NCBI GenBank assembly: GCA_963822405.1
Contig: CAWGHH010000002.1
Location: forward strand, 198,002-262,001
Source: Candidatus Uhrbacteria bacterium
GTDB taxonomy: Bacteria > Patescibacteriota > Patescibacteriia > UBA9934
Length of the DNA: 64,000 nt
Direction of reading: 5' to 3'
The stretch's first letter is position 1. The number at the start of each line of letters is the position of its first letter. Both the position numbers and the translations under genes were made by a program. Shown piece after piece: positions 30,574 through 52,339 of this stretch. The notes under the pieces are model-generated. The model searched no databases, had not been told where the DNA came from, and worked only from the letters and a program-made list of their open reading frames with translations.

Positions 30574-30581
30574 TTCGCAGC

Positions 30582-30666
30582 AAAAACAAAACAACCAGTG
30601 TTGTCGAGAAATTTTTAGGAGGTACTCCGACTCAAATTTCGAGGCAATACTGGTTGTTTTGTTTTT
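30582..30666. repeat. About 85-bp palindromic intergenic repeat, copy A (inverted partner at 52257-52339)
   Basis: The arm aaaacaaaacaaccagt pairs with actggttgttttgtttt, and the loop contains ttaggaggtactcc. The reverse complement matches the second copy almost base-for-base. Confidence 0.7.
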
Positions 30667-30686
30667 GCGGTACAATATAACTAAGT

Positions 30687-32444
30687 GTGAAAGCTAGCTT
30701 ATTTATATTGCCAGGTATTGTCTCTATTTTGTTCATTGCCGGTTTGGCTGGCGTGCCTTTTTGTTTATTGACGGCCATTGCCATAGGCGTGTGTAAAATC
30801 GTTATTGATTCGGCTAGAAGTATTGCAGAGGGCAGATACTCGCTGGACTACATTGCTTTTGCGGCCATGGTCATGTCGCTTTTGACCGGTGAGTATATAG
30901 CAGGTGCAGTAATCGCCTTTATGTTTACGGGTGGAGAAGCTCTTGAGGCCTATGCATCGGCTCGTGCCCATGACGCGCTTAAGACTTTGAGTGAAACTAT
31001 TCCAAAAGTCTGTTTGGTTAGGAGAGGCTCGATTTACGAGGAGGAACCAATCCAAGAAGTTAAAGAAGGACAGATTATTTTGGTGAAAAGAAGTGAGATC
31101 ATCCCGCTTGACGGAACCATTAGTTCTAAAGGTAAAGCCATTTTGAACCTAGCTAATTTGACTGGCGAGGCTGAAGCAGTTACGAGAGAGACTGGAATGT
31201 TCGTGAAAAGTGGTTCGGTGAATGCCGGCGAATCACTGGAGTTGAAAGTGGTGGGTAATTTTTCCTCGTCGACATATCACAAAATCGCCTTACTCGTTGA
31301 AGACGCAAAGATAAATCCGGCGCGAACGGTTAGGCTTTCTGAGCAGGCAAATTGGTATTTTACAGCGGCCACATTTCTCATCGCGACTGTTACTTACTTA
31401 GCGTCTGGTGATATTGATCGAGTGTTGTCCGTGCTCGTGATTGCTACTCCGTGCCCATTGATTATTGCAGCACCAGTAGCTTTTGTGAGTGGTATGTCAC
31501 GGACGGCCAGGGCTGGAATTATTATTCGTAAGCCCGCTGCCTTTGAAGCTATTGCGAAAGCGACTGTCGTATTTTTTGATAAGACTGGAACATTGACTCT
31601 TGGCGAGCCGGTGCTGACTGAGGTTGAAATAACTTCGAAGAACAGCGCGGTCAAATCGATAGATGACGCATTACGGATTGCGGCCGGAATTGAAATTCAT
31701 TCATTGCATCCTTTGGCTCGAACCTTAGTGGCTGAGGCAACTAAGCGCGAGATAGCTTTTCCGGTGGCCGGCATGGTGCGTGAGTTGATCGGTAAGGGAA
31801 TTGCTGGCTCGATAAACGGAAAAACATATTCTATTAGTCGAGCCGAAAATGCGAAAGGCGCAATTTCGCTCTCATTGCTTGAGGGAACTTCTGAGCTCGC
31901 CAGATTCCACTTTGCTGACGTACTTAAGGAAGGCGCAGTCGAGCTACTTGCGGCTTTGAAGGCTCGGGGCATTCGGGCAGTGGTCATTACTGGTGACAAA
32001 AAAGAAAATGCAAAACGAGTGTTTAAGGGTACCGGGATTGAAATCTTTGCCGAGCAGTCACCAGAAGATAAGCACCGGTTAATTGATAATGCCAAGAAGA
32101 AGGGGGAGACCGTGGTGATGGTGGGCGATGGAATAAATGATGCTCCGGCTCTGGCTCGCGCGGATGTTGGGATAGTTTTTTCTGGTACTGAGAACGGGGT
32201 CTCTATAGAGGCGGCTGATGTGGCAGTTCTTGGTCACGGCATTGAGAAACTATTCGCCCTGTTTCTGATTTCTCGACGAACAGTCTCCGTTGCCAGGGAA
32301 AGTATTTACGGCGGTATTGGTTTATCAACTATTGGTATGCTCTTTGCGGCGTTTGGCTATCTCCCGCCAATCTCCGGAGCGCTAATCCAGGAGGGCATAG
32401 ATGTGATAGTTATTTTGAACGCTCTTCGTGCGTTACGGGGCTAG
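30687..32444 (+). CDS. Heavy-metal translocating P1B-type ATPase (no N-terminal metal-binding domain)
   Basis: The CPC motif (ATPCPLIIAAP), DKTGTLT, HP (SLHPLA) and GDGINDAP are present. The track start is a GTG. Confidence 0.75.
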   Translation: MKASLFILPGIVSILFIAGLAGVPFCLLTAIAIGVCKIVIDSARSIAEGRYSLDYIAFAAMVMSLLTGEYIAGAVIAFMFTGGEALEAYASARAHDALKTLSETIPKVCLVRRGSIYEEEPIQEVKEGQIILVKRSEIIPLDGTISSKGKAILNLANLTGEAEAVTRETGMFVKSGSVNAGESLELKVVGNFSSSTYHKIALLVEDAKINPARTVRLSEQANWYFTAATFLIATVTYLASGDIDRVLSVLVIATPCPLIIAAPVAFVSGMSRTARAGIIIRKPAAFEAIAKATVVFFDKTGTLTLGEPVLTEVEITSKNSAVKSIDDALRIAAGIEIHSLHPLARTLVAEATKREIAFPVAGMVRELIGKGIAGSINGKTYSISRAENAKGAISLSLLEGTSELARFHFADVLKEGAVELLAALKARGIRAVVITGDKKENAKRVFKGTGIEIFAEQSPEDKHRLIDNAKKKGETVVMVGDGINDAPALARADVGIVFSGTENGVSIEAADVAVLGHGIEKLFALFLISRRTVSVARESIYGGIGLSTIGMLFAAFGYLPPISGALIQEGIDVIVILNALRALRG

Positions 32445-32463
32445 CTGATATGATGAACGGGTA

Positions 32464-33789
32464 ATGGCTAAGCAAATAACAATTTCTAGACTTGGGCTAC
32501 TCGCAGGAACGCTAGCGATAGTTTTTCAGGTTCCTTTTGTTGCTAAAGCCGGAGACACGCCTTCAGCGCTTCAAGCGCAGCTTCAAGAAATAGAGAAACA
32601 AATTATTGCAGATAAGCTAGAGATAAAACAGACGCAGGGGCAAGCAAAGACTTTAGCAAACAAGATTGCCACCCTCACTAAACAGCGAGCGGTATTGCAA
32701 TTGCAAATGCAACAAACTGAAATTTCATTACTAGATGTTGAAAATAGATTACAAGATACTCAGATTGCTATTGGGGACGGAGAAAAACAGACGCAGGCGC
32801 TTCGTGAGCGGTTATCCACGCTCATTAGGCATATTAATGTTGCTGATAATAAATCGTTTATCTATTCTGTAATTTCGAGCAAAGATATTCTTGAGGTGAT
32901 AACAACTACTGAAGAGTACGGCAGACTTACGAATGATCTGAGCACAGCCGTGTCAAACGCTAAAGAACAAACGGCTAGGTTAAAAATTCAGGAAGAAGAG
33001 CTAGCCATACAGCAGGAGGACGCGAGTAATCTGCAGAAACTTCGAGGTATTCAGCAGTCTTCTATTCAGTCTAGTGTTGGCGAGCAGAAAACTTTGTTAA
33101 CGGAAACTAGGGGGCAGGAGGCCATTTATCAAGCTGAGCTTGGTGATCATAAGGCGCAAGCCGCGGCTATCAGAAACAGAATTTACGAAATGTTGGACAC
33201 CGGCAATACACACATTACTTTTGGCGAGGCGGTGAAAATTGCTACTTGGGTGCAGTCGGCCACTGGAATAGAGCCAGCATTTCTTTTGTCAGTCCTAACG
33301 CAAGAGTCGAATCTCGGTTCAAATGTCGGCACTTGTAATCGAGTTGGTGATCCGCCGAGTAAGAATTGGAAAGTAGTCATGAAGCCAACTCGTGACCAAG
33401 AACCATTTTTGAAAATCATGGAAGCGCTTGGCCGAAGTCCAGAAGGCACGCCTATCTCTTGCCCAATGCATGACAAGTCGGGGGAGCAAATTGGTTGGGG
33501 CGGTGGCATGGGACCAGCGCAGTTCATTCCGTCTACTTGGATTGGCTACTCGACCAAAGTAACAAACATAACCGGCAAAGCTGCTGATCCTTGGGATATT
33601 CGGGACGCGTTCATTGCTGCTGCCATTAAATTAACAAACGACGGTGCCTCCACCGGTACAGACGAAGGCGAATGGAACGCTGCCATGCGCTACTTCAGTG
33701 GTTCGACGAATACGCGGTTTCGTTTTTACGGGGATCAAGTAATGACGAGAACTGAGCAATACAGACAGGATATTAAAGAGCTAAATTAA
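32464..33789 (+). CDS. Secreted coiled-coil protein with a C-terminal lytic-transglycosylase-like domain
   Basis: A signal peptide is followed by a long Q-rich coiled-coil. The C-terminal LTQESNLG...GMGPAQFIPSTW resembles SLT-domain motifs (ES.. / GLMQ..p.TW). Confidence 0.5.
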   Translation: MAKQITISRLGLLAGTLAIVFQVPFVAKAGDTPSALQAQLQEIEKQIIADKLEIKQTQGQAKTLANKIATLTKQRAVLQLQMQQTEISLLDVENRLQDTQIAIGDGEKQTQALRERLSTLIRHINVADNKSFIYSVISSKDILEVITTTEEYGRLTNDLSTAVSNAKEQTARLKIQEEELAIQQEDASNLQKLRGIQQSSIQSSVGEQKTLLTETRGQEAIYQAELGDHKAQAAAIRNRIYEMLDTGNTHITFGEAVKIATWVQSATGIEPAFLLSVLTQESNLGSNVGTCNRVGDPPSKNWKVVMKPTRDQEPFLKIMEALGRSPEGTPISCPMHDKSGEQIGWGGGMGPAQFIPSTWIGYSTKVTNITGKAADPWDIRDAFIAAAIKLTNDGASTGTDEGEWNAAMRYFSGSTNTRFRFYGDQVMTRTEQYRQDIKELN

Positions 33790-33859
33790 TAAGTTTTTCG
33801 CTAAAATTAGCCAAATAGACCTTGACAAAAGGCCTATTTTTTGCTACTATAATAAGGTA

Positions 33860-35002
33860 TTGCAGTTTACTCACTACTTGGAGGTTCCCGTGAAGTTCTT
33901 GTTTGTACTTGTTGCTCTCGTCGGCTGTCACAGTCAACCGACGGACACCGAGGAGACCGACTCGGATATGACGGTTGACACGACCGATACCGACGTGGCG
34001 CCTGTCGGCTGCGACAACGTGATGACGTTTGACGGAGATTCCAACGGCGACGCCGACGGCATTCCTGAGAACGTGATGACGCAGACATTCGTGAATGGAC
34101 TTCCGATTCGGTACGTGCAGGTGCAGTACTTCGCCGGTATCACGGTCGTGAACGAGCTCACGCACGACGAGGACGGTCGGTATCTCGGTTACGTCACTAC
34201 CTCCTACCCGTGTGTCGACTGCGACTTCACGAGCGTGGAAGGCGTCATCACGGACGTCTACACCAGGGAGTACCTTGACGCGCAGAACGCGATCCGGGAG
34301 ACGTTCGAAAGTGACACTTACCCGGATTACAGTCGCTCGGATCTGTACTTCTTCAATGAGGATGATCAGATTGTCCGAGTGGAGTCAGACTCGCCACTCG
34401 ATGGCGTGGTGGACGGCGTGTATACGTACACGTACAACGAACACGGCGACATGTTGTCCGTGACGGTTGAGAGCCCGGACGGGCTCTGGCCGACGCAGAT
34501 TCACACGTGGCGTTATGACTCCTCAAACCGAATGATTCGGGACGAGGATGATTCGCAGCTCACGTTCTGGATCTACGCGTCCAACGACCGGTCGTACTAC
34601 ATGGCCAAGCAGTGGAAGCCGCTACATGATTATCCGGATAGCGTGCAATACGCGGATCTGGACGAGAACGGGCGGTGGACCTACATGGAATACGACGGAA
34701 ACGCAGACGGCGTTATTGACGACGCGTACTACCAATCGTACGACCTCGCCGGTCGGGTAATCCTCATGCAGGGAGACCGAAACGCCGATGAAGTAATCGA
34801 CAGTTCCGAATCCTTCACCTACGACCAGGGTGGGCACTTGCTCACGGACGTAGCGGACAACGCCCCGTACGACGGAACCCCGGACGATGTGCAAACCTGG
34901 ACGTACGACGCGTACGGCCGGGAGATCATCTGGGAGTCCAACTGGCCGGTGGACAGCATCATCGACCAGCGTCAGACTTGGACCTACGACTGCGCGCCCT
35001 AA
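33860..35002 (+). CDS. YD-repeat-like lipoprotein encoded in a GC-rich island
   Basis: Lipobox LVGC-HS is present. The protein is acidic with recurring TYTYNEHGDML, TFTYDQGGHLL, TWTYDAYGREI and TWTYDC units (YD/Rhs-like). The gene is visibly GC-rich and produces many spurious alternative-frame ORFs. Confidence 0.6.
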   Translation: MQFTHYLEVPVKFLFVLVALVGCHSQPTDTEETDSDMTVDTTDTDVAPVGCDNVMTFDGDSNGDADGIPENVMTQTFVNGLPIRYVQVQYFAGITVVNELTHDEDGRYLGYVTTSYPCVDCDFTSVEGVITDVYTREYLDAQNAIRETFESDTYPDYSRSDLYFFNEDDQIVRVESDSPLDGVVDGVYTYTYNEHGDMLSVTVESPDGLWPTQIHTWRYDSSNRMIRDEDDSQLTFWIYASNDRSYYMAKQWKPLHDYPDSVQYADLDENGRWTYMEYDGNADGVIDDAYYQSYDLAGRVILMQGDRNADEVIDSSESFTYDQGGHLLTDVADNAPYDGTPDDVQTWTYDAYGREIIWESNWPVDSIIDQRQTWTYDCAP

Positions 35003-35025
35003 GCGCTGACAGCCATTAGGTCCGC

Positions 35026-35060
35026 GAACGCCCCTGCACCAGTTGCACGGGGCGTTTTTC
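35026..35060 (+). terminator. Rho-independent terminator
   Basis: The hairpin acgcccctgcaccagttgcacggggcgt is followed by ttttt. Confidence 0.55.
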
Positions 35061-35108
35061 TTTTATGGTGAAGAGATGCTACGATGTTTGAAATTTCAAA
35101 TTCATATT

Positions 35109-35666
35109 ATGGACTTCGGCAAACAAGCAATCATCATTCACGGCAAAGGGAGCGGGAATCCTAATTCAGGTTGGTATCAGCATGTAGCGAAAGAGCTTAC
35201 TAAACTTGGCATAGATGCGATCTATGAGGCGTTCCCAGAGCCAAACACGGCGCGGGAGCGAGATTGGTTGCCGTTCATAGCTGAGCTTGGGGCTGACGAG
35301 AATACTATTTTGATCGGCCATTCTACGGGCGCCGTCGCAGCCATGCGATACGCGGAGGAGAACGAAATCCTCGGCTCTGTCCTGGTTGCGCCTTGTTACA
35401 CGGACCTTGATGATGAGAGCGAACGTGAGAGCGGATATTTTGACCGTCCATGGGATTGGGACGCCATCAAAAAGAACCAATCTTGGATTATTCAGTTTTC
35501 TTCTACGGATGACCCATTGATTCCCATTGAGGAAGCCAGGCACATTCACCAGGCTCTTGATACTGAATATGTCGAGTTCACAGACCGTGGACATTTTGGC
35601 TATCCAAAAAAGATGACCGAGTTCCCGGAGCTTGTTTCAGCCGTTAAAGAGAAGTTGAAGAAGTAA
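35109..35666 (+). CDS. Alpha/beta serine hydrolase, RBBP9/YdeN-like
   Basis: IIIHGKGSGNPNSGWYQHV and the nucleophile elbow LIGHSTGA are present. The start was taken at the ATG at 35109 within track ORF 35043..35666. Confidence 0.65.
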   Translation: MDFGKQAIIIHGKGSGNPNSGWYQHVAKELTKLGIDAIYEAFPEPNTARERDWLPFIAELGADENTILIGHSTGAVAAMRYAEENEILGSVLVAPCYTDLDDESERESGYFDRPWDWDAIKKNQSWIIQFSSTDDPLIPIEEARHIHQALDTEYVEFTDRGHFGYPKKMTEFPELVSAVKEKLKK

Positions 35667-35729
35667 TAATTTAGATGCTTCTAATTTGTTCGGCTATAAT
35701 AGGCCAAACGAACTCTTTTATTATTTCTT

Positions 35730-37034
35730 ATGTCCAAGATTTCAAATATTCACGCCCGGGAAATCCTTGACTCGCGCGGGAACCCAACAGTTGAGGTCGA
35801 CCTCGTGATCGACAGTGGTGAGCTCGTGCGGGCGAGTGTGCCAAGTGGGGCGTCGACGGGTAAGCGTGAGGCGGTAGAACTGCGTGACGGCGACAAGAAG
35901 CGGTATGCCGGGCAGGGCGTTTTGAAAGCAGTGAATAATGTGAACACGGAACTCACAAAGCTTGTCACTGGTCAGAATCCACTCGAACTTGAGAAAATCG
36001 ACAAGCTGATGATCGACCTCGACGGTACAGAGAACAAGGGACGACTCGGCGCGAACGCGATTCTTGGCGTGTCCATGGCAGTTTTGAAGGCTGCGGCGGC
36101 TGTGTCGAACGTTCCTCTGTACCAGTACATCAAGGAAAAATACCGACCAAACACGCCGTACATCATGCCGGTGCCGATGTTCAACATTTTGAATGGTGGT
36201 TTGCACGCTGAAGGTTCGTCCGACTTCCAGGAATACAAGATCGCTGCTATTGGCGCGCCGAGCCTTACCGAAGCAGTTCGTTGGAGCGCGGAAGTATTCC
36301 ATGTATTGAAAAAGTTATTACATGATCGTGGACTCACGACCACCGTCGGTGATGAGGGCGGTTTTGCGCCCGCCATGAAATCGAATGACGACTACCCGCA
36401 GATCATTGTCGAAGCAATTGAAAAGGCGGGCTACAAACCAGGCAAGGACATCTTCCTCGCCCTTGATCCAGCGTCTAGTTCGTTTTACGACGACGGTAAA
36501 TACACTTTGAAGCGTGATGGTCGAGTGTTAAATTCGGACGAGATGATTGCGTTTTGGGCAGACTGGATTAGCAAGTACCCGATTATTTCTATTGAGGATG
36601 GACTCGGTGAAGATGATTGGGATAACTGGAAGAAGCTTTATGCAACGCTCGGCAAGAAAATTCAAATCATGGGCGACGACTTGCTGGTAACAAATCCAAA
36701 GATCATCAAGAAGGCGATCGCTGACAAGCTCGCAAACTCAGCGTTGATCAAGATTAACCAGATCGGTTCGATGTCAGAGACCATCGAGGCAGTAACCCTC
36801 GCGCAAGCTGCTAAATGGTCGGCGGTTGTGTCACATCGCTCTGGCGAAACCGAAGATACAACTATCGCTGACCTCGTCGTTGGCCTCGGCACCGGCATGA
36901 TCAAGACTGGTTCTGCGAGCAGGTCAGAACGTGTAGCGAAGTACAACCAGTTAATGCGCATAGAAGAAGAGCTCGGCGAAAAGGCCGGTTATCCAGGGAT
37001 GAAAGCATTCGACAATATCAAGAATGTTTCCTGA
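35730..37034 (+). CDS. eno: Enolase (phosphopyruvate hydratase)
   Basis: MSKISNIHAREILDSRGNPTVEV... and SHRSGETED are present. Length is 434 aa. Confidence 0.95.
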   Translation: MSKISNIHAREILDSRGNPTVEVDLVIDSGELVRASVPSGASTGKREAVELRDGDKKRYAGQGVLKAVNNVNTELTKLVTGQNPLELEKIDKLMIDLDGTENKGRLGANAILGVSMAVLKAAAAVSNVPLYQYIKEKYRPNTPYIMPVPMFNILNGGLHAEGSSDFQEYKIAAIGAPSLTEAVRWSAEVFHVLKKLLHDRGLTTTVGDEGGFAPAMKSNDDYPQIIVEAIEKAGYKPGKDIFLALDPASSSFYDDGKYTLKRDGRVLNSDEMIAFWADWISKYPIISIEDGLGEDDWDNWKKLYATLGKKIQIMGDDLLVTNPKIIKKAIADKLANSALIKINQIGSMSETIEAVTLAQAAKWSAVVSHRSGETEDTTIADLVVGLGTGMIKTGSASRSERVAKYNQLMRIEEELGEKAGYPGMKAFDNIKNVS

Positions 37035-37112
37035 GTCATCCTGAGCAGAGCGAAGGATCTGATTGGTTAACCATTCAGATCCTTCGTCCCGTCGGACGGG
37101 ACTCAGGATGAC
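37035..37112 (+). ncRNA. Structured 3'UTR element after eno (nested multi-stem palindrome), followed by a T-run terminator
   Basis: The outer stem gtcatcctgag/ctcaggatgac encloses stem gaaggatctg/cagatccttc (with a ggttaacc hairpin) and hairpin cccgtcggacggg. The tract gggtttaaaaccttggtttttttt follows at 37120-37140. Confidence 0.4.
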
Positions 37113-37165
37113 TGAACGAGGGTTTAAAACCTTGGTTTTTTTTGCTGTGATAGAATGTCGCCACT

Positions 37166-38809: not shown

Positions 38810-38852
38810 CAACATTAAACTTGCTAGGCTTTTCTATTCAAAATAACAAACT

Positions 38853-39503
38853 ATGTGTTTTTCAGCCACAGCTAGTTTTGTAGCGAGCGGTGTTCTGGTT
38901 GGCGCATCCATTGTTACTTTTTCGAGTCTTAAGAAACAACCGACTAAACTATTTGCCGTTATCCCTTTGTTGTTCGCTGTTCAACAGGCGGTAGAAGGAT
39001 TTCAGTGGATTGTGCTTGGTCATGGTTCGCCGAGCATGCCGTTAGCTTACGCCTTTGTATTTTTTGCGTATTTATTTTGGCCGGTATTTCTACCGCTCGC
39101 GTCTCTACAAGCGGAGAGTGATCCAACTCGACGAAAACTTATAATGGTTTGTTTCGGGGCCGGAATTTTTACGGCGCTCGTGCTTGGGTATTCAATGATC
39201 ATTCATCCGCTGATAGTTAGTGTGCCTGGTCAATGTATATCTTATAGAATAGACACTATTTATCAGATGCCATTAAAGCTGTTATTGCCAGTTACGTATT
39301 TGGTTTCAGTAATTGGCGGGGGATTACTAGTTAGACGATTTTGGATTCAAATGTTTGGCGCGCTCGGTCTAGTAGGTTTGGCGGTGAGCTATATTGGTTT
39401 CACCTTAGCCTATCAGTCCGTGTGGTGTTTTTTTGCGGCTGCTATTAGTTTGTGTATTATTATGGAATTGAGATCGGTAAAAACATCCGCACCTAAAAAA
39501 TAA
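38853..39503 (+). CDS. Hypothetical polytopic membrane protein (216 aa)
   Basis: About six hydrophobic segments. Confidence 0.45.
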   Translation: MCFSATASFVASGVLVGASIVTFSSLKKQPTKLFAVIPLLFAVQQAVEGFQWIVLGHGSPSMPLAYAFVFFAYLFWPVFLPLASLQAESDPTRRKLIMVCFGAGIFTALVLGYSMIIHPLIVSVPGQCISYRIDTIYQMPLKLLLPVTYLVSVIGGGLLVRRFWIQMFGALGLVGLAVSYIGFTLAYQSVWCFFAAAISLCIIMELRSVKTSAPKK

Positions 39504-39510
39504 TTTATAT

Positions 39511-39909: not shown

Positions 39910-39924
39910 TTCGTTATAATGAAG

Positions 39925-39951
39925 CACCCCGCCGGCGAATCCGGTGGGGTG
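39925..39951. repeat. GC-rich REP-like hairpin (caccccgccgg-N5-ccggtggggtg), copy 1 of 3
   Basis: An 11-bp stem, identical in copies at 41135-41161 and 42504-42529. Each copy lies 3-15 nt after a + strand stop codon and is followed by T's on one or both strands. Confidence 0.65.
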
Positions 39952-39959
39952 TTTTGCGC

Positions 39960-40425: not shown

Positions 40426-41132
40426 ATGAAGAATAAAGAAACAACGTTATCTCTCGCCGTTTACCAGACTCGCCAAGGTGCTCTGGAGCTTCGGAAGGAC
40501 TCGACGGCCACTATTTGGGCAACCCAGGCACAGATTGTCGAGCTTTTTGGTATTGATCAATCGGTCGTTTCACGTCACGTGAAGAACATCTTTCACGATG
40601 GCGAGATCCATCAAAAAAGCAATATGCAAAAAATGCATATTGCAAATGCTGATAGACCTGTTGATTTGTATTCGTTGGATGTCATTTTGGCAGTCGGATA
40701 TCGGACCAATTCGGCAAAAGCGATTGCGTTTCGTCAGTGGGCTACGAAGGTCCTTTCGTTCGCATATCGTCGACGGCTACACGATTAACCCTAATCGGAT
40801 AGGGAAGAATTATGATGCTTTCATGGAGGCGGTGAAAAAAGTAAAAGCACTTCTTTCACATGCGGTCCTTCGGCGGAAGGGAGCTTTATCCGACCATTGA
40901 GGAGAAAGCGGCGCATCTTCTCTATTTTATGGTGAAGAATCATCCCTTTACGGACGGCAACAAACGGTCTGGCGCTTTTGCGTTCGTTTGGTTTTTAAAG
41001 AAGGCAAAGATTTTGAATTCGGCACGCATGTCACCAGAGGCATTGACTGCGCTCACTTTGCTTGTGGCTGAGAGTAATCCAAAGGAGAAAGAAAAAACGG
41101 TCGGTTTGATCACGCTCCTACTTGGAAAATAA
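40426..41132 (+). pseudogene. RhuM-family N-domain fused to a Doc (Fic/Doc) toxin domain, disrupted by two +1 frameshifts
   Basis: Frame 1 reads LYSLDVILAVGYRTNSAKAIAFRQWATKVL. Frame 2 continues with HIVDGYTINPNRIGKNYDAFMEAVKKV. This is homologous to YIVKGFAMNDERLKNPNNVFGKDYFEEQLARV in the intact RhuM at 20753. Frame 3 reads GGRELYPTIEEKAAHLLYFMVKNHPFTDGNKRSGAF, the Doc signature HxFxDGNKR. Confidence 0.6.
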
Positions 41133-41134
41133 AA

Positions 41135-41161
41135 CACCCCGCCGGCGATAACGGTGGGGTG
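41135..41161. repeat. GC-rich REP-like hairpin, copy 2
   Basis: The sequence is caccccgccggcgataacggtggggtg. A T-rich tract follows on the minus strand. Confidence 0.6.
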
Positions 41162-41833: not shown

Positions 41834-42499
41834 TTGTTTGTGTACTTTATGCTTCAATTTGGATTCAAAAAGATCGCGGTTTTTCTTTTGTGTGGCCTTG
41901 TTGTTCTTGCTGCGCTCGTAGTATTTCCATATTTTGTTATTCAAGGACAGAAAAGTCAGGTGAAAGATAAGGTCGAGGACGTGGCAGTTCAGCCGGTGGC
42001 CATAGTTTTTGGCGCGGGCATAAAACGCGACAACACTCCATCTGATATGCTTGAAGATCGTCTGACTGTAGCCTCGCGGCTTTATCATTTAGGTAAGGTC
42101 AAAACCATTTTAGTGTCGGGCGATAATCGATTTGAAAATTATTCCGAGCCTGACGTGATGCGTGATGTTCTTGTTCGCGACTTTAAGATTCCCGTCGAGG
42201 ATATCCAGATCGACTACGCCGGTCGACGGACATATGACACCTGTATTCGCGCCAAGAAGTTTTGGGGCGTAGATCACGCTGTTCTGATAACTCAAGACTT
42301 TCATTTGCCTCGAGCCATTTGGACTTGCGAAAAACTGGGTATTGAAAGCGTCGGCGTATCAGCCTCTCTTCGTCCGTATATGTTTGCTGGCAAGTCTCAG
42401 CTTCGAGAACTCCCGGCAGACCTCAACGCATTTATTGATATTTACCTGTGGCATCCAAGTTACTTGAAGGGCGAGTTTGTGAAGGATATTGATCCATAA
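41834..42499 (+). CDS. SanA/YdcF (DUF218) family protein
   Basis: An N-terminal transmembrane segment is followed by AIVFGAGIKRDNTPSDMLEDRLTVASRLYHLGKVKTILVSGDNR, the DUF218 signature. Confidence 0.7.
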   Translation: MFVYFMLQFGFKKIAVFLLCGLVVLAALVVFPYFVIQGQKSQVKDKVEDVAVQPVAIVFGAGIKRDNTPSDMLEDRLTVASRLYHLGKVKTILVSGDNRFENYSEPDVMRDVLVRDFKIPVEDIQIDYAGRRTYDTCIRAKKFWGVDHAVLITQDFHLPRAIWTCEKLGIESVGVSASLRPYMFAGKSQLRELPADLNAFIDIYLWHPSYLKGEFVKDIDP

Positions 42500-42503
42500 A
42501 AAA

Positions 42504-42529
42504 CACCCCGCCGGCGGTTCCGGTGGGGC
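42504..42529. repeat. GC-rich REP-like hairpin, copy 3
   Basis: The sequence is caccccgccggcggttccggtggggc. Confidence 0.6.
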
Positions 42530-42549
42530 ATGTCATAAACTTGATCGAA

Positions 42550-42894: not shown

Positions 42895-43005
42895 GACGCC
42901 TCCAAAAGGTTCGTTAGAATGCTTAAATAAGAATAAGTGTTGGTTTGTGCTTTGTCAACAAAATTTGGCTATTTTTAGTTCTGTAGTGTATTATCCCCCA
43001 GCTTT

Positions 43006-44457: not shown

Positions 44458-44518
44458 CTACAAAATACGCGTTCACAGGCGTATTTTTGTTTGACAGAAT
44501 CACCATATTCAGCTAGTA

Positions 44519-46303
44519 TTGGCCATTCCTATGGAATCAATCAACCTCCTCCAAAAGCCCGTCTCTCCTCTACGCAAGTGGTTCATGCTTGTTGTTCTTT
44601 CCCTTGCCCTAGCGGTGATCATTTTGGACACCACTATTTTGAACGTTGCCCTGGCTTCCATCATCCGTGACCTTCATACGGACATCCAAAGCATCCAGTG
44701 GGTGATTACGTCATATTCTCTAACTCTAGCCGCGTTGACTATTACCGGCGGTCGTCTTGGCGACCTTTTCGGGCGCAAGAAAATGTTCGTGTTTGGCGCA
44801 GTTCTTTTTGCCGTTGGTTCGTTCATTGCGTCTATCAGTCAGAACGTGGGCACGTTAATTATTGGCGAGTCGATCATAGAAGGCATCGGCGCAGCGCTCA
44901 TGATGCCGGCCACCGCGTCACTGCTTGTGACAAACTTTGAGGGACGAGCCAGGGCCGTTGCCTTTGGTGTGTGGGGAGGAATTGCCGGTGCGTCAGCCGC
45001 GCTCGGCCCAATCCTGGGCGGATACCTCGCCACTAACTATTCTTGGCGTTGGGGTTTTCGAGTTAATTTGATTGTTGTTCTTCTTTTAGTTATTGGTTCT
45101 GTTCTTATCCCGGAATCTCGTGATCAGAAAGAAAAGAAACAGCTTGATATTGTTGGCGTGATTCTTTCGGCCTTTGGTCTTTTGTCTTTTGTTTTCGGCA
45201 TCATCGAATCGACTACCTACGGCTGGTGGAAGGCTAAGGCTATTGTTTCAGCTTTTGGTTACAGTTTTACCATGCCATACGATTTATCAATCGTTCCGGC
45301 CTTCCTTTTGCTCGGGGCAATTATTCTTGGCGTGTTTATGATTTGGGAAGTGGTTCGAGAGCGTTCCGGTAAGACGCCGCTAGTTTCCATGGGCATCTTT
45401 GCTAACCGAGCGTTTAGCTCTGGTTTGGCAATGACCGGTGTGATGTCTTTAGGCCAAGCCGGCCTTATCTTTGCCTTACCGGTGTTTCTACAGTCTGTAC
45501 GCGGTTTGGATGCCTTCCACACGGGTTTAGCGCTTCTCCCAATGTCAGTTGCTTTATTGATTGTCGCCCCATTGTCTGCTGGCCTGAGCAAATTTGTGTC
45601 ACCAAAGAGATTAGTTAACCTTGGTTTATTTACGAACGTGATTTCTTACGTTGTCATGTGGAATACGTTGACCGTCCAGACAACAGCCGCTGAACTAGCT
45701 CCTGGGTTAGCCTTGTTCGGTGTTGGTATGGGCTTGGTTATGTCTCAGATTAATAACCTAACGCTGTCAGCTGTGCCAATTCATCAAGTAGGCGAGGCAT
45801 CCGGAATTAATGCTACGTTACGTCAGGTTGGCTCGACACTTGGTTCGGCGATTATTGGTGCAATCTTGATCGGCACCCTCGGCACTCAGATGACGGTTGG
45901 AGTCGAGGAAAGCAAAGTAATTCCCGAAGGTTATAAAGAGCAGCTAGCCCAAGTGTTGTCTACTCAGACTTCGAATATTGAATTTGGTGGGGGAGCGCAG
46001 GTTGGTAAGAATCTGCCGGAATCTATCTCGATCGAAATCACAAATATCGGCCACGCCGCTACAGTTGCTTCGGCCAAGAATACGTTTGCCGTTGGTGGGC
46101 TGTTTGCGCTCCTTGGTTTCTTGTCTTCCTTGGTCTTCTTGCCTTCGGGAAAGAAACAGCGTGAAACTGATCCGAATGAGATAGAGCTGACCACGGAGCT
46201 CATTGGAGAATTAATAGAAACAGATTTGACCTTAGTTAGAAACGACAAGCCAAGTCTTGGCGCGGATGTCCGGAAGATTATTGACGAAGCTTTCCAAGTC
46301 TAA
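44519..46303 (+). CDS. MFS transporter, DHA2 (14-TMS, EmrB/QacA-like) family
   Basis: Motif A GRLGDLFGRKK is present, with about 14 hydrophobic segments. Confidence 0.8.
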   Translation: MAIPMESINLLQKPVSPLRKWFMLVVLSLALAVIILDTTILNVALASIIRDLHTDIQSIQWVITSYSLTLAALTITGGRLGDLFGRKKMFVFGAVLFAVGSFIASISQNVGTLIIGESIIEGIGAALMMPATASLLVTNFEGRARAVAFGVWGGIAGASAALGPILGGYLATNYSWRWGFRVNLIVVLLLVIGSVLIPESRDQKEKKQLDIVGVILSAFGLLSFVFGIIESTTYGWWKAKAIVSAFGYSFTMPYDLSIVPAFLLLGAIILGVFMIWEVVRERSGKTPLVSMGIFANRAFSSGLAMTGVMSLGQAGLIFALPVFLQSVRGLDAFHTGLALLPMSVALLIVAPLSAGLSKFVSPKRLVNLGLFTNVISYVVMWNTLTVQTTAAELAPGLALFGVGMGLVMSQINNLTLSAVPIHQVGEASGINATLRQVGSTLGSAIIGAILIGTLGTQMTVGVEESKVIPEGYKEQLAQVLSTQTSNIEFGGGAQVGKNLPESISIEITNIGHAATVASAKNTFAVGGLFALLGFLSSLVFLPSGKKQRETDPNEIELTTELIGELIETDLTLVRNDKPSLGADVRKIIDEAFQV

Positions 46304-47150
46304 TTTTCCAGTGACTTCCAGGATAGTGAACTCGACTAATCCCAAAGTGAGTCTTGAAGAGCGAGTAGCCAATGTCGGATTGAAACGGGAGTGGGTTCGG
46401 GCCACACATGTCGCCAAAGTTACAAAGCTTAAGTTGTTTTTCCCGAGTGCGTTCGAACCAATAGTTTACAAGTCCCACCATGGCGTGGGACTTTTTGGCT
46501 TCGGGCAAATAGAAACCAAGCAAGTAAAAACTAGTTGATGCTTCCTGGCATTCGCCGGCTACAAAACAGGCCACTATTCCGTGTTCGAGGGAATCAGCGA
46601 TTAATACTTCGATTGTTTCGGGATGCGCTGCTTGATGGCGAAGGGTAAGGTCAATAAATACTTTTTGGAGACTGCGGGGAATATTTGATTTAGCGTAAGC
46701 GGTTTTGATTTCGTCGAGCCGACCGAGACGTAAAGTAATGTCACTTTGTTTCTGGAATATCTTTAAGTGTCTCTTGGCCTGATTACGCCAGCTAGCACTA
46801 ACCGAACCGACAAGTGGCACCTCAGCTATCCCATGAAGACGAGGTGCGCCAAACGAACGGAACCCGTGCTTGTTTACATTGCTTTGAAAGGCGGGAACCC
46901 ACTCGTCTACTGAGATGAGCGAAGTAGAAGTTGCGGTTGGGGGAGGGAGATTGTCTGTGGTGAAGGCGCGGCGCCAGGAGATGAGCGGGTTGTTAAAGAC
47001 GGTCATTGAGAACCCCTGGTCAAATAGAATAGGCTGACCAGAGCCGATAGCGGCCACCGCTGCCCAATGAGTAGCGTCATAGGGCGGCAGGGCTCGATCC
47101 GTATAGACGGGACAGACGTCATTTAGATATTTGAGGTCAAGGCGTCGCAT
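46278..47150 (-). CDS. Hypothetical protein (290 aa), possibly FemAB/GNAT-fold
   Basis: Long ORF convergent with, and overlapping, the MFS gene's 3' end. The family is a guess. Confidence 0.4.
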   Translation of the reverse strand: MRRLDLKYLNDVCPVYTDRALPPYDATHWAAVAAIGSGQPILFDQGFSMTVFNNPLISWRRAFTTDNLPPPTATSTSLISVDEWVPAFQSNVNKHGFRSFGAPRLHGIAEVPLVGSVSASWRNQAKRHLKIFQKQSDITLRLGRLDEIKTAYAKSNIPRSLQKVFIDLTLRHQAAHPETIEVLIADSLEHGIVACFVAGECQEASTSFYLLGFYLPEAKKSHAMVGLVNYWFERTREKQLKLCNFGDMCGPNPLPFQSDIGYSLFKTHFGISRVHYPGSHWKIRLGKLRQ

Positions 47151-47185
47151 AGGATATGATGGAGAGTGTAGTTTGATAAACCAAT

Positions 47186-48028
47186 ATGATCAATCGAGAA
47201 ACCGGCATTCAGATTTTAGTTAGTCTAACGTTTGTAACAGTCGTTGCTACTCTTGGCTCGTATATTACTTCACTTGGTCTTCAGGATTGGTACGGTACCC
47301 TCGTGTTGCCGGCTTTTGCGCCACCTGGGCAGGTAATTGGTTTGGTTTGGACTACGCTGTTTGTTATGCTGGCAACGGCTATCACCATTTCTTGGAACGC
47401 ATCAAAGAAGCAGTTCTTGAGTAAACTCGCCCCTTTGTATTTTGTAAACGGACTTTTGAATGTACTTTGGAGTTTAGTATTTTTCGGGATGCACAATCTT
47501 TCCGGAGCGGCGGTCACGTCTGGGTTGTTGGGTTGTTCCGTGTTAGTTTTAATTTTTGCGAACATTAAATTCTCAAAAATTGCTGCGGGACTACTTGTGC
47601 CATATTTTCTGTGGGTATCGTTTGCGACGGCACTAAATGTGCAGATAGTTGTCCTTAACGCTCCGTCGACAACGACAGGTGACGTTGTTATTTTGCCGGG
47701 ACAAAAAGATCAACTACCAGTCGAGGGCGTCTCAAATCAAGTAACTGGATATGGCTTTACGCTGACAACTGGCATGACCAAGAAAATCGACAGTCATTTA
47801 ACGCTCAAGCTTGATGGGGTGAATGATTCTCGTTGTCCGGCGGTTGATGGCGTGAAATGTATTTGGGCGGGGGAGCTCTCGCCTGAACTAACGGCCACGC
47901 TCGACGGAAAAGTTTCGCAGATTAGACTGGGTACAACTAGAGCAAAAGAAATTGATATTGGGACATATCATGTGACCTTGATCGACGCCGGGCTTGAGAG
48001 CGCAAAGATTAAAGTTACACTCCCGTAA
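47186..48028 (+). CDS. TspO/MBR family protein with an additional roughly 120-aa C-terminal domain
   Basis: The pattern PP..VIGLVWTTLFVMLA...LYFVNGLLNVLWSLVFFG...LLVPYFLWVSFATALN is the TspO signature across five transmembrane segments. The C-terminal extension is hydrophilic. Confidence 0.65.
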   Translation: MINRETGIQILVSLTFVTVVATLGSYITSLGLQDWYGTLVLPAFAPPGQVIGLVWTTLFVMLATAITISWNASKKQFLSKLAPLYFVNGLLNVLWSLVFFGMHNLSGAAVTSGLLGCSVLVLIFANIKFSKIAAGLLVPYFLWVSFATALNVQIVVLNAPSTTTGDVVILPGQKDQLPVEGVSNQVTGYGFTLTTGMTKKIDSHLTLKLDGVNDSRCPAVDGVKCIWAGELSPELTATLDGKVSQIRLGTTRAKEIDIGTYHVTLIDAGLESAKIKVTLP

Positions 48029-48034
48029 AACAGA

Positions 48035-48060
48035 AGAGCTCCCGAGTGGGAGCTCTTTTT
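48035..48060 (+). terminator. Rho-independent terminator
   Basis: The perfect hairpin agagctcccgagtgggagctct is followed by tttt. Confidence 0.7.
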
Positions 48061-48383
48061 GAATGTACATTCTGATGAACCAGCTGCTATTTCTGTGGCG
48101 GAATCATTGCTGGTGGTGGCACTGGCTTTCCGTCGAACTGTGGCTTTGATTGTCCGTCGTTACGCATAATCCTTGAGATAAAGATTAATACTTCCAACGC
48201 ACGTAACTCACGTACTCCTGCAGGGAGTCCATTCACAATAGGCCTAGGGGGTGGTGGGGGCAAACAGATGTCCACATGAAGCTTTTTTCTGCGCTACTGT
48301 TGGCCATAAAGACTGATTGTATTTTACGACACCGAAAGTTTGTGAATAGTTTTTTGGAGGGATTTCTAGTAAACTGTTCAATT

Positions 48384-49406
48384 ATGAAAAAGGACGTACA
48401 AAAAAAGGCCATTGAAAATGTTTCCGGGATTCTGCGTGATATTTTTGAACACGATGAACGTCATCAGGCCATTGTTGTCTTTGATGAAAGCTGTCCACTC
48501 AGTCGGGTTATGGCTGACGCGTATAGGACCGTCTTGCCGACTGCCCAACATATTCTTTTTGACGAGGGTAAGGCAACGGAGATCGTGGCGGCATTAAGCT
48601 CGCTTGCGCCGGGCGACTTGGTAGTTCTTATTCAGTCCGGAAGTTTTCGCTTAAACGAATTTCGTATCAGGATCGAACTATTCAAAAAGGGCTTGAAAGT
48701 TATTGAGCATCCTCATTTGGATCGCATGCAGTCCGCTGAGCATATTGAGACATATATCGACTCGCTCGCCTATGACAAAGCTTACTACCGTGGTACCGGT
48801 TCGGCTTTGAAAATGCTGATTGATAAGGCGAAGTCAATTATTGTCGAGTCACCCGGATGCGCGCTCACGTACGTGGGTCCGTTCGAAGACGCAAAGTTGA
48901 ACGTTGGCGACTATACAAATATTAAGAATTGGGGCGGAATGTTTCCTATTGGTGAGGTGTTCACTGAGCCAAAGGACCTTGAGAAAGTAAGTGGGTCAGT
49001 AAAATTAACTGCTTTTGGCGATAGAAACTTTTTCACTAATGTTCCAGCGGTGCCAATCGAAATAATCGTTGAGCACGGGGTAGTTGTCGACACTAAAAAT
49101 TCAACCCCTGAGTTTGACGCTGTCCTCATGGAAATTAGGGAAGAAGAAACGGCCGTGTTACGCGAGCTTGGTTTGGGACTGAACCGAGCGTTCACGAACG
49201 TGCGAACCGTGCCTGACATTGGAACCTATGAACGCAAATGCGGAATTCATTTTTCTCTTGGAGGTAAGCACGGCACTTATGCTAAAGAGGGATTCTCGCG
49301 GAAGCACTCAAAGTTCCATGTAGACGTCTTTGCCGATGTCACTAGGGTATTGATCGATGGAATGGTGGTGTTCGATAATGGTGCGTGGCAAATAAATAAT
49401 CCCTGA
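48384..49406 (+). CDS. Hypothetical protein (340 aa), possibly an aminopeptidase-like enzyme
   Basis: The start was set at the ATG at 48384 within track ORF 48276..49406; the upstream 36 codons look non-coding. The family is not recognised with confidence. Confidence 0.45.
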   Translation: MKKDVQKKAIENVSGILRDIFEHDERHQAIVVFDESCPLSRVMADAYRTVLPTAQHILFDEGKATEIVAALSSLAPGDLVVLIQSGSFRLNEFRIRIELFKKGLKVIEHPHLDRMQSAEHIETYIDSLAYDKAYYRGTGSALKMLIDKAKSIIVESPGCALTYVGPFEDAKLNVGDYTNIKNWGGMFPIGEVFTEPKDLEKVSGSVKLTAFGDRNFFTNVPAVPIEIIVEHGVVVDTKNSTPEFDAVLMEIREEETAVLRELGLGLNRAFTNVRTVPDIGTYERKCGIHFSLGGKHGTYAKEGFSRKHSKFHVDVFADVTRVLIDGMVVFDNGAWQINNP

Positions 49407-49672
49407 TTACTCAGGGATTATTTATTTAGGCCTTCACCTTTGCCTTAGCTTCTAGCTTTCCAAGACGGAGTGCCTTCTGCTTACGGCGACGGAACTCAGC
49501 TTCCTTTCGCTTTACGGCGAACATAGCGTTCTGATCTTTGCGGGAGGTGTGTTGTCGTTGTGGCATATGGTGGGGTTGGGGTCGACCCATGCGTCGACCC
49601 AAATAAGATGGATGGAAGTATACCGGATACCCATTATTCGTCAAGCATTAGCTCTTTTGAAAATTAATAAGC

Positions 49673-49695
49673 CGGCAGCGTGGTTCTGCCGGCCT
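49673..49695 (-). terminator. Rho-independent terminator for the minus-strand gene 49724..50380
   Basis: The hairpin gccggcagcgtggttctgccggc has a T-rich tract on the minus strand. Confidence 0.5.
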
Positions 49696-49723
49696 GTAAG
49701 GTCGAATGAAATCAGAGGTTGGA

Positions 49724-50380
49724 CTATCCCGGGGAGGGGACTCCGTTCTGTATGGCGAGGGTACGGTTCGTGAGACCGAGTTCGACGGCTCGGCTGAGCG
49801 TGATCCACTCGCCGTTGCATTTGGGCAACTCGTTGTAGTGGCCGTAATGGATCAACCATTGTTCGTCAACGATCGTTGACCAGGGCACCGGGAACTGGAC
49901 GGTCAGTGAACGGAACGGTACTCGTAGAAGCGGCGGCGGGTCATCGGGCTTCGCCAGCGGAGGAATGAAGTAGCAACTTTTGAACGGGCCGTCCGTAGCG
50001 GCGAAGACGAAGACTTCCGGTGGACCGGCTACCTCGCGGTTTTGGTTCTCGGCGAGTGTGGCGTTCTGGAAGCCCAGCATTAACGCTCTCGCGACCTGGA
50101 TCCACTGACCGGTGCACCGAGCGGGGTGTCGCGGGTTTCCATCGTAGTGCGTGACCCACTCTTTCCGCAGGAACGGAAATGCTTCGAAGACATTCACGAT
50201 GACGTTATCGAGCCGTAATGCGCGAACCCGCTCCGTTGCGGTGTCGTAGTCGGGCGGATGTGTGGCGCGGTAGCTGGCCATTGTGTGGGGGTCGAAATAC
50301 CTGTCTTTGAGCGGGCCGTCACTGGTCAGAAAGACCATCGAATCAGGCCAATTATACTGTGTAGGTTTTTCGTCGGGCAC
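49724..50380 (-). CDS. Tandem-repeat protein of unknown function in a GC-rich island
   Basis: A GTG start is preceded by AAGGAGG. Two roughly 95-aa repeats share F..DGP.K..YF.P...W..HY...P.C.G.WI...RA..LG. The segment is visibly GC-rich. Confidence 0.55.
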   Translation of the reverse strand: MPDEKPTQYNWPDSMVFLTSDGPLKDRYFDPHTMASYRATHPPDYDTATERVRALRLDNVIVNVFEAFPFLRKEWVTHYDGNPRHPARCTGQWIQVARALMLGFQNATLAENQNREVAGPPEVFVFAATDGPFKSCYFIPPLAKPDDPPPLLRVPFRSLTVQFPVPWSTIVDEQWLIHYGHYNELPKCNGEWITLSRAVELGLTNRTLAIQNGVPSPG

Positions 50381-50484
50381 GTTGCCTCCTTTTGGTGTAG
50401 TCGCCCGCAGAGGTTAGCGGAAAACGCCGAGAAAGTCAAAGCCGACAGCATGAGGCTGTCGGCTAGCGGGAAACGAACCGCGGG

Positions 50485-50721
50485 TTACGGCATCGGTTCG
50501 GTACGGGGTGGCGCAATGGGCGCCGTAGCTTTCTCATCGTCTCTTGGACTCGCCGGAGGAACCGTTGGTTCATTATCAGCGGGTGGGCTTACTTGTACTG
50601 GTCCCTTTTTCGGCGAGGAGCCGAATAGGGCGTTCCAGAACTTCTGTAGCAGCGTGGGATCTTTCATGGGGACACCTCCGGAGGGGAACCAAGCATAGCA
50701 ATTTGCAACTTTCTTGTACAT
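50485..50721 (-). CDS. Small Pro-rich hypothetical protein (78 aa)
   Basis: ORF track only. A minus-strand hairpin terminator (gccgacagcatgaggctgtcggc, 50441-50463) follows it. Confidence 0.3.
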   Translation of the reverse strand: MYKKVANCYAWFPSGGVPMKDPTLLQKFWNALFGSSPKKGPVQVSPPADNEPTVPPASPRDDEKATAPIAPPRTEPMP

Positions 50722-50760
50722 GGTTGACGAATCTTTAGAAATACGACAAAACTACTCTAT

Positions 50761-52260
50761 ATGCAGATAACCGTTCTCAAGGCTACCGCTGAATCGTGTC
50801 AGGCAAATTTGATTGTGATTCCGATGTTCGCTGGGAAAGCTTTTACGCTTAAGAGTGTTAAGGGGATTCCGGCAGATCTAGTTGATAGATTCATGGTAAG
50901 TGCCGAGCGAACAGGATTCGCTGCTAAGCCGAATGAGACCGTGCTGTTGCAATTGCCCGTAGGACGGAATGCCGACGCGATACTTGTTGTTGGTTTGGGG
51001 GAGAAGCACTCCTCGAACCTTCAGGCGGTCCGTGAGGCTATAGGAACCGCAACGGGGTTCGCTCGAAAGAACGGGATGAAGTCAGTCGGCGTTATTTTGT
51101 CTAAGGAGCTGGCGAAGGCGGATGTTAGTGAGGCGGTAGCTGTAGCCGCTATCTTGAGCGACTACTCTTTTGACATGTTTAAGAAAGAACCGAACACAAA
51201 GCATCTTGATCAACTAGAGATTGCGGTAGAAGACAGAACAAAGATTCAGGCTCTTAGAAAAGCGGTTGAGCATGCAGAAATTATTTGTGATGGTTTGACC
51301 GTAGCTCGTGACCTTGTGAACACGCCAGGAGGACACATGACGCCGACACTTTTGGCACTTGCCGCCATAGAGATAGCCAAGACATCTAAAGAGATGGTTG
51401 AGGCAAAGATCATGGAGGCGGGGGAGTGTGAGAAGCTCGGCATGGGAGCGTACTTGTCAGTAGCCAAGGGAAGCGGACAAGAACCAAAGTTTATTCATTT
51501 GATATATAAGTCTCCTCGCCCAAGCAAGAAAACGGTGGCGATTGTTGGGAAGGGCGTGACGTTTGATTCGGGTGGCTTGTCGCTCAAGCCGGCTGATGGG
51601 ATGATGACCATGAAGTGTGATATGGCGGGAGCAGCCGCCGTGCTCGGTTTCTTTGCAACGCTTTCGCGCTTGAAGCCACGCGTTCATATTCACGGAATCA
51701 TTGCGGCTACAGAGAATATGCCAAGTGGACATTCGACCAAGCCGGGAGATGTGGTGAAGTCTATGAACGGGAAGACTATAGAGGTCTTGAATACTGACGC
51801 CGAGGGACGTTTGACACTCGCAGATGCCATGACGTATGTCCAGCGTGAAGTTAAACCTGACGTGATGATCGACTTGGCTACTTTGACGGGTGCTGTTGTG
51901 GCCGCGCTTGGTGAAGAAGTTGCCGGAGCGATGGGGAATGACAAGAAGCTAATGAAAGAAGTCCTGAATGCAGCTGATGAGGCGGGGGAGCGCACCTGGG
52001 AGTTACCGCTAGTTGATAGATACGCACCGCTCATCAAGTCTGACGTGGCCGACCTGCGTAATATTTCTTTGACTCGTTACGGGGGAGCTCTGACGGCCGG
52101 AATGTTCTTAGTCGAATTCGTCGAAGACAACACACCGTGGGTGCACCTCGATATTGCCGGTCCAGCCTTTGCTGAGCGACCTTTGTCGAGCTACCTTGGA
52201 AAAGGCGGAACTGGGTTTGGAGTCGGCACGCTCGTGAAGTACATCCAGAGTTTAGAATAA
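50761..52260 (+). CDS. pepA: Leucyl aminopeptidase (M17 family)
   Basis: The NTDAEGRLTLADAMTYVQ signature and VGKGVTFDSGG are present. Confidence 0.9.
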   Translation: MQITVLKATAESCQANLIVIPMFAGKAFTLKSVKGIPADLVDRFMVSAERTGFAAKPNETVLLQLPVGRNADAILVVGLGEKHSSNLQAVREAIGTATGFARKNGMKSVGVILSKELAKADVSEAVAVAAILSDYSFDMFKKEPNTKHLDQLEIAVEDRTKIQALRKAVEHAEIICDGLTVARDLVNTPGGHMTPTLLALAAIEIAKTSKEMVEAKIMEAGECEKLGMGAYLSVAKGSGQEPKFIHLIYKSPRPSKKTVAIVGKGVTFDSGGLSLKPADGMMTMKCDMAGAAAVLGFFATLSRLKPRVHIHGIIAATENMPSGHSTKPGDVVKSMNGKTIEVLNTDAEGRLTLADAMTYVQREVKPDVMIDLATLTGAVVAALGEEVAGAMGNDKKLMKEVLNAADEAGERTWELPLVDRYAPLIKSDVADLRNISLTRYGGALTAGMFLVEFVEDNTPWVHLDIAGPAFAERPLSSYLGKGGTGFGVGTLVKYIQSLE

Positions 52261-52339
52261 ACAAAATAACCAGTATTGCCTCGAAATTTGAGTCGGATTA
52301 CCTCCTAAAAATTTCTCGACAACACTGGTTGTTTTGTTT
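52257..52339. repeat. About 85-bp palindromic intergenic repeat, copy B (inverted partner of 30582-30666)
   Basis: The sequence aacaaaataaccagtattgcctcgaaatttgagtcggattacctcctaaaaatttctcgacaacactggttgttttgttt lies between convergent pepA and the peroxiredoxin gene. Confidence 0.7.

Follow-up and report, generated by a model that had tools for sequence, protein, structure and literature searches.

In a 64,000-nt (64-kb) stretch of the Candidatus Uhrbacteria bacterium assembly GCA_963822405.1 (contig CAWGHH010000002.1; hereafter the window, whose numbering we use throughout), two sites 21.7 kb apart carry nearly the same long hairpin in opposite orientations, raising the question of what kind of element this is and how its two copies have come to be so alike. 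To our knowledge, non-coding RNA, terminators and repeat dynamics are very little known in the candidate phyla radiation (CPR), whose genomes are reduced (~0.9 Mb). We approach the question by combining repeat searches and RNA folding in the window with a comparison of related loci (labelled L0xx below). The interpretation that we favour, with about as much confidence as doubt, is that the element would be a clade-specific, conserved terminator or 3'-end stem-loop RNA with a sequence-constrained apical module, whose two copies appear to evolve in concert.

The repeat is a real and statistically solid feature of this DNA. A repeat search of the window finds inverted arms at 30574-30664 and 52259-52349, each 91 nt long, 95% complementary and separated by 21,594 nt, and each copy is palindromic in its own right, with arms of 35 nt (89%) in copy A and of 36 nt (86%) in copy B around a 19-nt centre in both cases (Table 1). 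The 22-nt arm pattern occurs four times in the window, compared with 0.01 occurrences expected from shuffles. Each copy is predicted to fold into one long hairpin with a stem of about 35 bp, whose interior is almost wholly paired and whose loop has 4 nt. The predicted energies are -52.1 kcal/mol (copy A, + strand) and -44.4 kcal/mol (copy B, - strand), with z-scores against shuffles of -8 to -10 for these folds and of -6 to -10 for the two copies overall. The apical part contains the motif AGGAGG, which copy A carries on the + strand (30617-30622) and copy B shows as CCTCCT on the + strand (52301-52306); we name the two strands of the element accordingly. Both copies are flanked by A-rich sequence on the 5' side and T-rich sequence on the 3' side. 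A sequence-only reading of this locus had described two near-identical inverted copies, each a long imperfect palindrome with an AGGAGG loop, and had suggested folding as a check; on all of these points the measurements agree with it. Because the element occurs in independent NCBI/ENA, JGI and Logan assemblies, it is not an assembly artefact.

Is the hairpin itself conserved, or only the sequence? We align five instances from four genomes (copies A and B of the window and those of L023, L025 and L028) and find that the consensus is a single hairpin of 37 pairs in which 98.3% of the cells are paired. Double, compensatory changes are carried by 14 of the 37 pairs, none of 500 shuffles reaches the observed values, and sliding the partner columns by 1-3 positions makes the pairing drop to 36-50%. 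Among the covarying stems are CCAG/CUGG, which appears as AUAG/CUAU and ACAG/CUGU in other instances, and AAAUUU/AAAUUU, which appears as AAAUUG/CAAUUU. The outermost four to five pairs also differ with compensation between copies A and B (GCAA/TTGC versus AGAAT/ATTCT), and at site B, the spacer between the genes pepA and bcp, the stem pairs with the final pepA codons in three genomes.

The invariant parts of the hairpin are its irregularities and not its stem. They comprise CGAG/CGAG, a UU/C loop, and AGGAGG/CCGACU, which closes a UAAU or UACU tetraloop. In copy A, a first tandem G·A is made by CGAG (30605-08) opposite CGAG (30640-43), followed by a 6-bp AAAUUU helix and the UU/C loop, and a second tandem G·A is made by AGGAGG opposite CCGACU (30627-32) beneath a UACU tetraloop. 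This apical module is kept, unchanged or almost so, in every instance (Table 1), and a GC-rich extension of 17 or 28 nt takes the place of the tetraloop in L025 and L028. The CCUCC strand resembles the 3' end of 16S rRNA (GGAUUACCUCCU), a resemblance that we take as coincidence because the GGAUUA part is not kept in L025 or L028.

Quantitative comparison of the two strands reveals which of them the conserved features belong to. The AGGAGG strand folds better in all five instances, by 3-13 kcal/mol: the opposite strands of copies A and B reach only -41.9 and -36.3 kcal/mol, and the three instances from relatives give -37.6 versus -34.2, -45.6 versus -35.9 and -60.1 versus -46.8 kcal/mol. The same holds for the consensus energy (-46.8 versus -33.5 kcal/mol), for the pairing (98.3% versus 93.8%) and for G·U cells (nine in the AGGAGG strand versus one in the other), and reading the opposite strand would turn the tandem G·A loops into tandem C·U. 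Copy B has the opposite chromosomal orientation to copy A, which makes the asymmetry a property of the element and not of the replication strand or of strand composition. The G·U pairs and the invariant tandem G·A are sensible only in the AGGAGG strand, an indication that selection acts on RNA. The pattern argues for a selected RNA, which at site A would be co-transcribed with a zinc-finger protein gene and at site B with bcp. A strong hairpin with a U-run also forms on the opposite strand, so that in this model pepA, too, could be terminated.

A strand asymmetry of this kind is meaningless for duplex DNA, and it bears directly on the idea that the element works at the DNA level, either as a recombination substrate that flips the 21.7-kb segment or as a cruciform or protein-binding site. 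The 75 nt of near-perfect inverted identity are long enough for homologous recombination, 75 nt being a sufficient length for a RecA substrate. However, in every related locus that we retrieved the segment has the same gene order and the same orientation relative to its flanks, the GC skew is positive without a break from 24 to 52 kb, as it is in the flanks, and no recombinase gene adjoins either copy. The segment is also not an island: it holds housekeeping genes with core functions (enolase, PIF1 helicase, ABC-F ATPase, MFS transporter, TspO and pepA). We consider a role of the element as DNA very improbable, and the inversion that the sequence-only reading had envisaged has left no sign of having become fixed.

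Now we consider how the element is distributed. By its PepA homologues the window belongs to Patescibacteria (CPR). Orthologous loci were retrieved through exact-protein look-ups, which gave ~180 kb of related DNA. Site B is occupied in L023 (11490-11582) and L025 (7952-8057), where PepA protein identity is 83-84%, and site A, after the zinc-finger gene, is occupied in L028 (8741-8857), whose contig also encodes a PepA >90% identical to that of the window. The core of the element is 81-88% identical across genomes, whereas the flanking coding DNA is 72-81% identical to the window, and the core is therefore under purifying selection. Within the window, copies A and B are 98% identical in their core, and neither shows closer similarity to its counterparts at the equivalent site in other genomes than to copies at the other site. 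Gene conversion between copies A and B, lying opposite to each other as paralogues, would be expected to give just these identities and would keep the two sequences almost identical; recent re-copying seems less likely.

The contrast between 98% identity within a genome and 81-88% between genomes also speaks for an alternative in which the element is a low-copy, non-autonomous mobile element (of the type of REP, ERIC or miniature inverted-repeat transposable elements, MITEs) that settles at gene ends or terminators and derives from a recent master copy. Occupancy is indeed patchy: the element is missing from site B in L034, L036 and L037 and from site A in L029, L030, L032 and L035. The Logan contigs L022 and L024 stop inside the element, where k-mers become shared; a repeated k-mer would have this effect, which is compatible with at least two copies per genome and shows no more. 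Furthermore, a second set of hairpins in these genomes (D1, described below) is equally homogeneous within each genome and occupies a metG-cvpA site in L036 that is empty in the window. Copy number and context argue the other way. With nhmmer and a calibrated covariance model, run on the window with filters off, we find two copies in 64 kb and only the orthologous ones in the related loci, all other matches being generic hairpins of at most 32 bits. There is no target-site duplication at copies A and B, because the flanks extend the palindrome (through the same GCAA/TTGC and AGAAT/ATTCT pairs) and form no direct repeat, and none of the 24 open reading frames (ORFs) scanned between 28.8 and 54.2 kb encodes a transposase, RAYT included. 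Unoccupied sites are not clean empty sites; they carry different terminators. Finally, both sites are common to genomes whose synonymous sites are probably saturated, given the coding identity above.

Wider searches of public collections added no further copy. Two pattern scans of viral contigs and a distant blastn search against phages and plasmids did not find the element, and a metagenome scan with GAAATTNTTAGGAGGN{2,30}CCGACTC gave two chance matches, neither of them a hairpin. Scanning a genome collection with the arm pattern AACCAGTRTTGYCNNGAAATTT gave 21 loci, all single chance matches to a pattern that is too strict (orthologues read ...AAATTG); three Bdellovibrionales matches to it lie inside a glutaredoxin-like coding region. 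Taken together, a mobile element seems to us unlikely. The sequence-only reading had spoken of a mobile or recombinogenic, MITE-like family, and of this proposal the recombinogenic part stands, indirectly, on the within-genome and between-genome identities, while the mobile part is not supported: the 64 kb hold just two copies, target-site duplications are lacking, and relatives that diverged long ago have both sites occupied. The more dramatic picture is thus corrected: nothing that we find indicates that the element jumps or that the 21.7-kb segment is invertible.

What stands at these sites when the element is absent? At exactly these positions L034, L029/L030, L032 and L035 have ordinary terminators made of a hairpin and a T-run, and L036/L037 have a different, GC-rich spacer of 155 nt at site B. 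The replacement of the element by ordinary terminators makes plausible the role as a (bi)directional terminator that had been suggested from the sequence alone. The structure agrees with such a role, since both strands form hairpins (-34.2 to -60.1 kcal/mol) that follow stop codons and are bounded by A- and T-tracts. We propose that a lineage-restricted, structured RNA stem-loop would mark transcript 3' ends in a small clade of Patescibacteria. Its stem of ~35 bp, with a 5' A-tract and a 3' U-tract, could act as an intrinsic terminator in both directions and also hold back 3' exonucleases, serving the zinc-finger gene at site A and the convergent bcp and pepA genes at site B. The two conserved, symmetric tandem G·A internal loops, the UU/C loop and AGGAGG/CCGACU suggest that the sequence-conserved apex may add an interaction with a protein or the ribosome.

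Several observations weigh against a terminator or 3'-end RNA. With an AU-rich stem and a U-tract that pairs with the A-tract, this is not a textbook terminator, and a simple terminator scan misses the element because the loop is longer than 8 nt. The covariation counts come from five instances in four related genomes and are not independent events. In L023, moreover, a 679-nt insert (11586-12264, 53% GC) that neither the window nor L025 has stands between the element and bcp, and the element there adjoins only pepA, in its less stable orientation. The insert has no ORF longer than 85 aa, no Rfam match at E <= 1 and no similarity to the other retrieved loci; possible explanations are a gene remnant and a large non-coding RNA.

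How does the element compare with known families? A search of Rfam at the gathering threshold gives no match, and in E-value mode only generic microRNA-precursor and small-RNA (sRNA) hairpins appear, at 13-33 bits against thresholds of 50-245; the element belongs to no described family. Like bidirectional intrinsic (Rho-independent) terminators, it consists of an A-tract, a hairpin and a T-tract placed after stop codons, with one copy between convergent genes, and ordinary terminators of the window share this design (for example at 49390-49427). Unlike them, its stem has ~35 AU-rich pairs instead of the usual 5-12 GC-rich ones, its two internal loops and its apical sequence are conserved, and it is 81-88% conserved between genomes and present in two near-identical copies, whereas intrinsic terminators normally turn over.

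The long intergenic palindromes of other bacteria offer a second comparison. ERIC (or IRU) sequences of enterobacteria are imperfect palindromes of ~127 bp in transcribed intergenic regions; our element shares with them the long imperfect palindrome at gene ends, the conservation across species, the patchy occupancy of orthologous spacers and a suspected selection or processing at the RNA level, but it has no sequence similarity to them, was seen in two copies where ERIC has tens to hundreds, and belongs to the phylum Patescibacteria. The REP and BIME sequences are likewise extragenic palindromes that follow stop codons, are able to terminate transcription or stabilise upstream mRNA, and are homogeneous within a genome and different between species; they are 20-40 nt long, occur in hundreds of copies and are often accompanied by RAYT, and a unit of ~90 nt seen in two copies does not belong with them. 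MITEs such as the Correia elements of Neisseria resemble it in size (~100 bp), inverted-repeat ends, intergenic location and the possibility of an RNA hairpin. It differs from them in being one continuous hairpin rather than terminal repeats around a core, and in the loci searched it has no target-site duplication, multi-copy dispersal or related insertion sequence. Bidirectional intrinsic terminators and the ERIC, REP or Correia palindromes are thus the closest in behaviour, and the element adds a new family to a familiar kind, from a phylum that has been little studied.

Two other candidates were rejected. TIGR arrays, which belong to the Tas/Nop-domain systems of CPR, consist of tandem hairpins whose loops hold two 8-12-nt spacers and box C/D motifs, next to a Nop-domain Tas protein (PMC12045711); here single hairpins with a paired interior and a 4-nt loop lie 21.7 kb apart, and their neighbours have no Nop-domain or PDB match. 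As for an integron attC site, which has R''/R' core sites (RYYYAAC ... GTTRRRY) at its ends and lies in a cassette array near intI, the ends AAAACAAC...GTTGTTTT do not fit GTTRRRY, and the neighbours are core genes, not cassettes.

An intergenic hairpin that is better conserved than its flanking genes, with compensatory changes, a strand-specific RNA signature and two copies evolving in concert, offers comparative genomics a usable way into 3'-end formation, and possibly also into an RNA-protein interaction, in unculturable CPR bacteria. A more far-reaching conjecture, which we hold tentatively and think improbable when taken whole, is that this would be an undescribed Patescibacteria RNA family whose two sheared tandem G·A motifs and Shine-Dalgarno-like AGGAGG/CCGACU apex dock a specific protein or the 30S subunit and so couple the 3'-end formation or stability of stress genes (the neighbourhood of the P1B metal ATPase and the Bcp peroxiredoxin), the two loci being kept identical by gene conversion; together with the D1 hairpins it would point to a CPR-specific class of conserved intercistronic RNA modules.

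Table 1. The two copies of the hairpin element, their parts and the adjoining genes (window coordinates).
Feature	Coordinates	Strand	Remarks
Copy A of the hairpin element	30578..30670	+	AGGAGG strand on +; covariance model match 106 bits
Copy A, parts	5' arm 30580-30614; apical part 30615-30633; 3' arm 30634-30668	+	
Copy A, conserved apical module	30605..30643	+	invariant or nearly so in 5/5 instances
Copy B of the hairpin element	52253..52345	-	AGGAGG strand on -; covariance model match 105.5 bits
Copy B, palindrome arms	52254-52289; 52309-52344		
Copy B, conserved apical module	52280..52318	-	on the + strand CTCG...CCTCCT...CTCG
Zinc-finger protein gene	30142..30573	+	CxxC-x17-CxxC, Arg/Asp-rich tail; Pfam PF23477, TIGR04272
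Heavy-metal (P1B-type) P-type ATPase gene	30687..32444	+	begins 17 nt after copy A
pepA (leucyl aminopeptidase)	50761..52260	+	last sense codon and stop within the outer stem of copy B
bcp-type peroxiredoxin gene	52351..52893	-	its stop precedes copy B in the AGGAGG orientation

The adjoining genes bear out the earlier description of copies that directly follow stop codons and end in T-rich tails, at the zinc-finger, pepA and bcp stops alike. Copy A starts 1-7 nt past the zinc-finger stop codon (30571-30573) and sits in the 3' untranslated region of that gene. In copy B the outer stem takes in the pepA stop codon (52258-52260), an arrangement that recurs in L023 and L025, and the copy ends 2-6 nt from the stop of bcp (52351-53), which is convergent with pepA.

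The ATPase gene behind copy A matters for one further explanation, namely a trans- or cis-acting regulatory RNA, such as an sRNA derived from the 3' untranslated region, a leader of the ATPase gene, or an RNA whose Shine-Dalgarno-like AGGAGG titrates ribosomes or a protein. Copy A is confined to genomes that have the ATPase gene (the window and L028), where it lies 17-20 nt upstream of a start without an obvious Shine-Dalgarno sequence, and the ATPase gene is absent from L029, L030, L031, L032 and L035; in addition, the tandem G·A loops, AGGAGG and CCGACU are more conserved than the stem, and the neighbours (metal ATPase, peroxiredoxin) are stress-related. At copy B, however, there is no gene downstream in the AGGAGG orientation, because that strand leads straight into the 3' end of pepA. 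The element has no evident promoter, Rfam offers no family, and plain terminators can replace it in relatives. A regulatory RNA of this kind is, in our judgement, distinctly unlikely, and a conserved 3'-end stem-loop remains the interpretation that we favour.

A TACAAT box is kept right after copy A in the window (30671-30676) and in L028 (8857-8862). The ATPase gene starts with GTG 6-10 nt further on and lacks a clear Shine-Dalgarno sequence, and its transcript could be leaderless or nearly so. A search for a sigma-70 promoter inside or after the element found no -35 partner for this box. A small ORF after AGGAGG was also considered and set aside, there being no start codon at a usable distance and none that is conserved.

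The gene content on either side of the zinc-finger gene varies between genomes. In the slot between it and an upstream gene for an HI0933-like flavoprotein (window 28815-30056; L028 7243-8145), the window encodes a 413-aa protein that matches nothing in Pfam, NCBIfam or PDB and L028 encodes an AcrVA2-like protein; L029 and L031 have nothing there. The slot that follows the zinc-finger gene holds the ATPase gene in the window and L028, GT4 and Gmad2 genes in L035, and again nothing in L029 and L031.

The D1 hairpins form a second long-hairpin family, found in the window at 56803-56893 and 59667-59767, in L025 at 12477-12578 and 14858-14945, and in L036 at ~6727-6850 and ~7350-7475. They are always found on the coding strand, in the gap that separates the stop codon of one gene from the start codon that follows (cvpA-tatD, atpE-atpF and, in L036, metG-cvpA), and a search of Rfam gives no match for them. 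Heptad repeats build their outer stems and covary from genome to genome (CCGGT/ACCGG in the window versus CAGGT/ACCTG in L025 and L036), and their 42-nt core (AAGGAAGGGGA...CTGAATTTAAATTCTTTGTTCAGGCTC) shows a conservation of 90-95% that extends to L036, a genome with a PepA only 71% identical. Both L036 copies carry the same genome-specific GC-rich insertion.

GC-rich hairpin modules of the form GCC-NNN(N)-GGC (for example GCCCGTAGGCGCAGCCGAGGG, CGCCATAGGCGGACCCGGCTCTGCCGGG and CAGCCGTAGGCGATGCCGGGCGGGG) recur as insertions in the apices of different hairpin elements, at L028 8786-8813, L025 ~7995-8012, and L036 6752-6782 and 7373-7403, and another lies within the pepA-bcp spacer of L036 (2160-2205); they may represent a tiny insertion module. 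Lastly, the window holds three similar GC-rich terminator hairpins (CACCCCGCCGG...CCGGTGGGGTG; 39918-39951, 41128-41161 and 42497-42530), which are 76-85% alike and lie ~1.2-1.4 kb apart among small genes.

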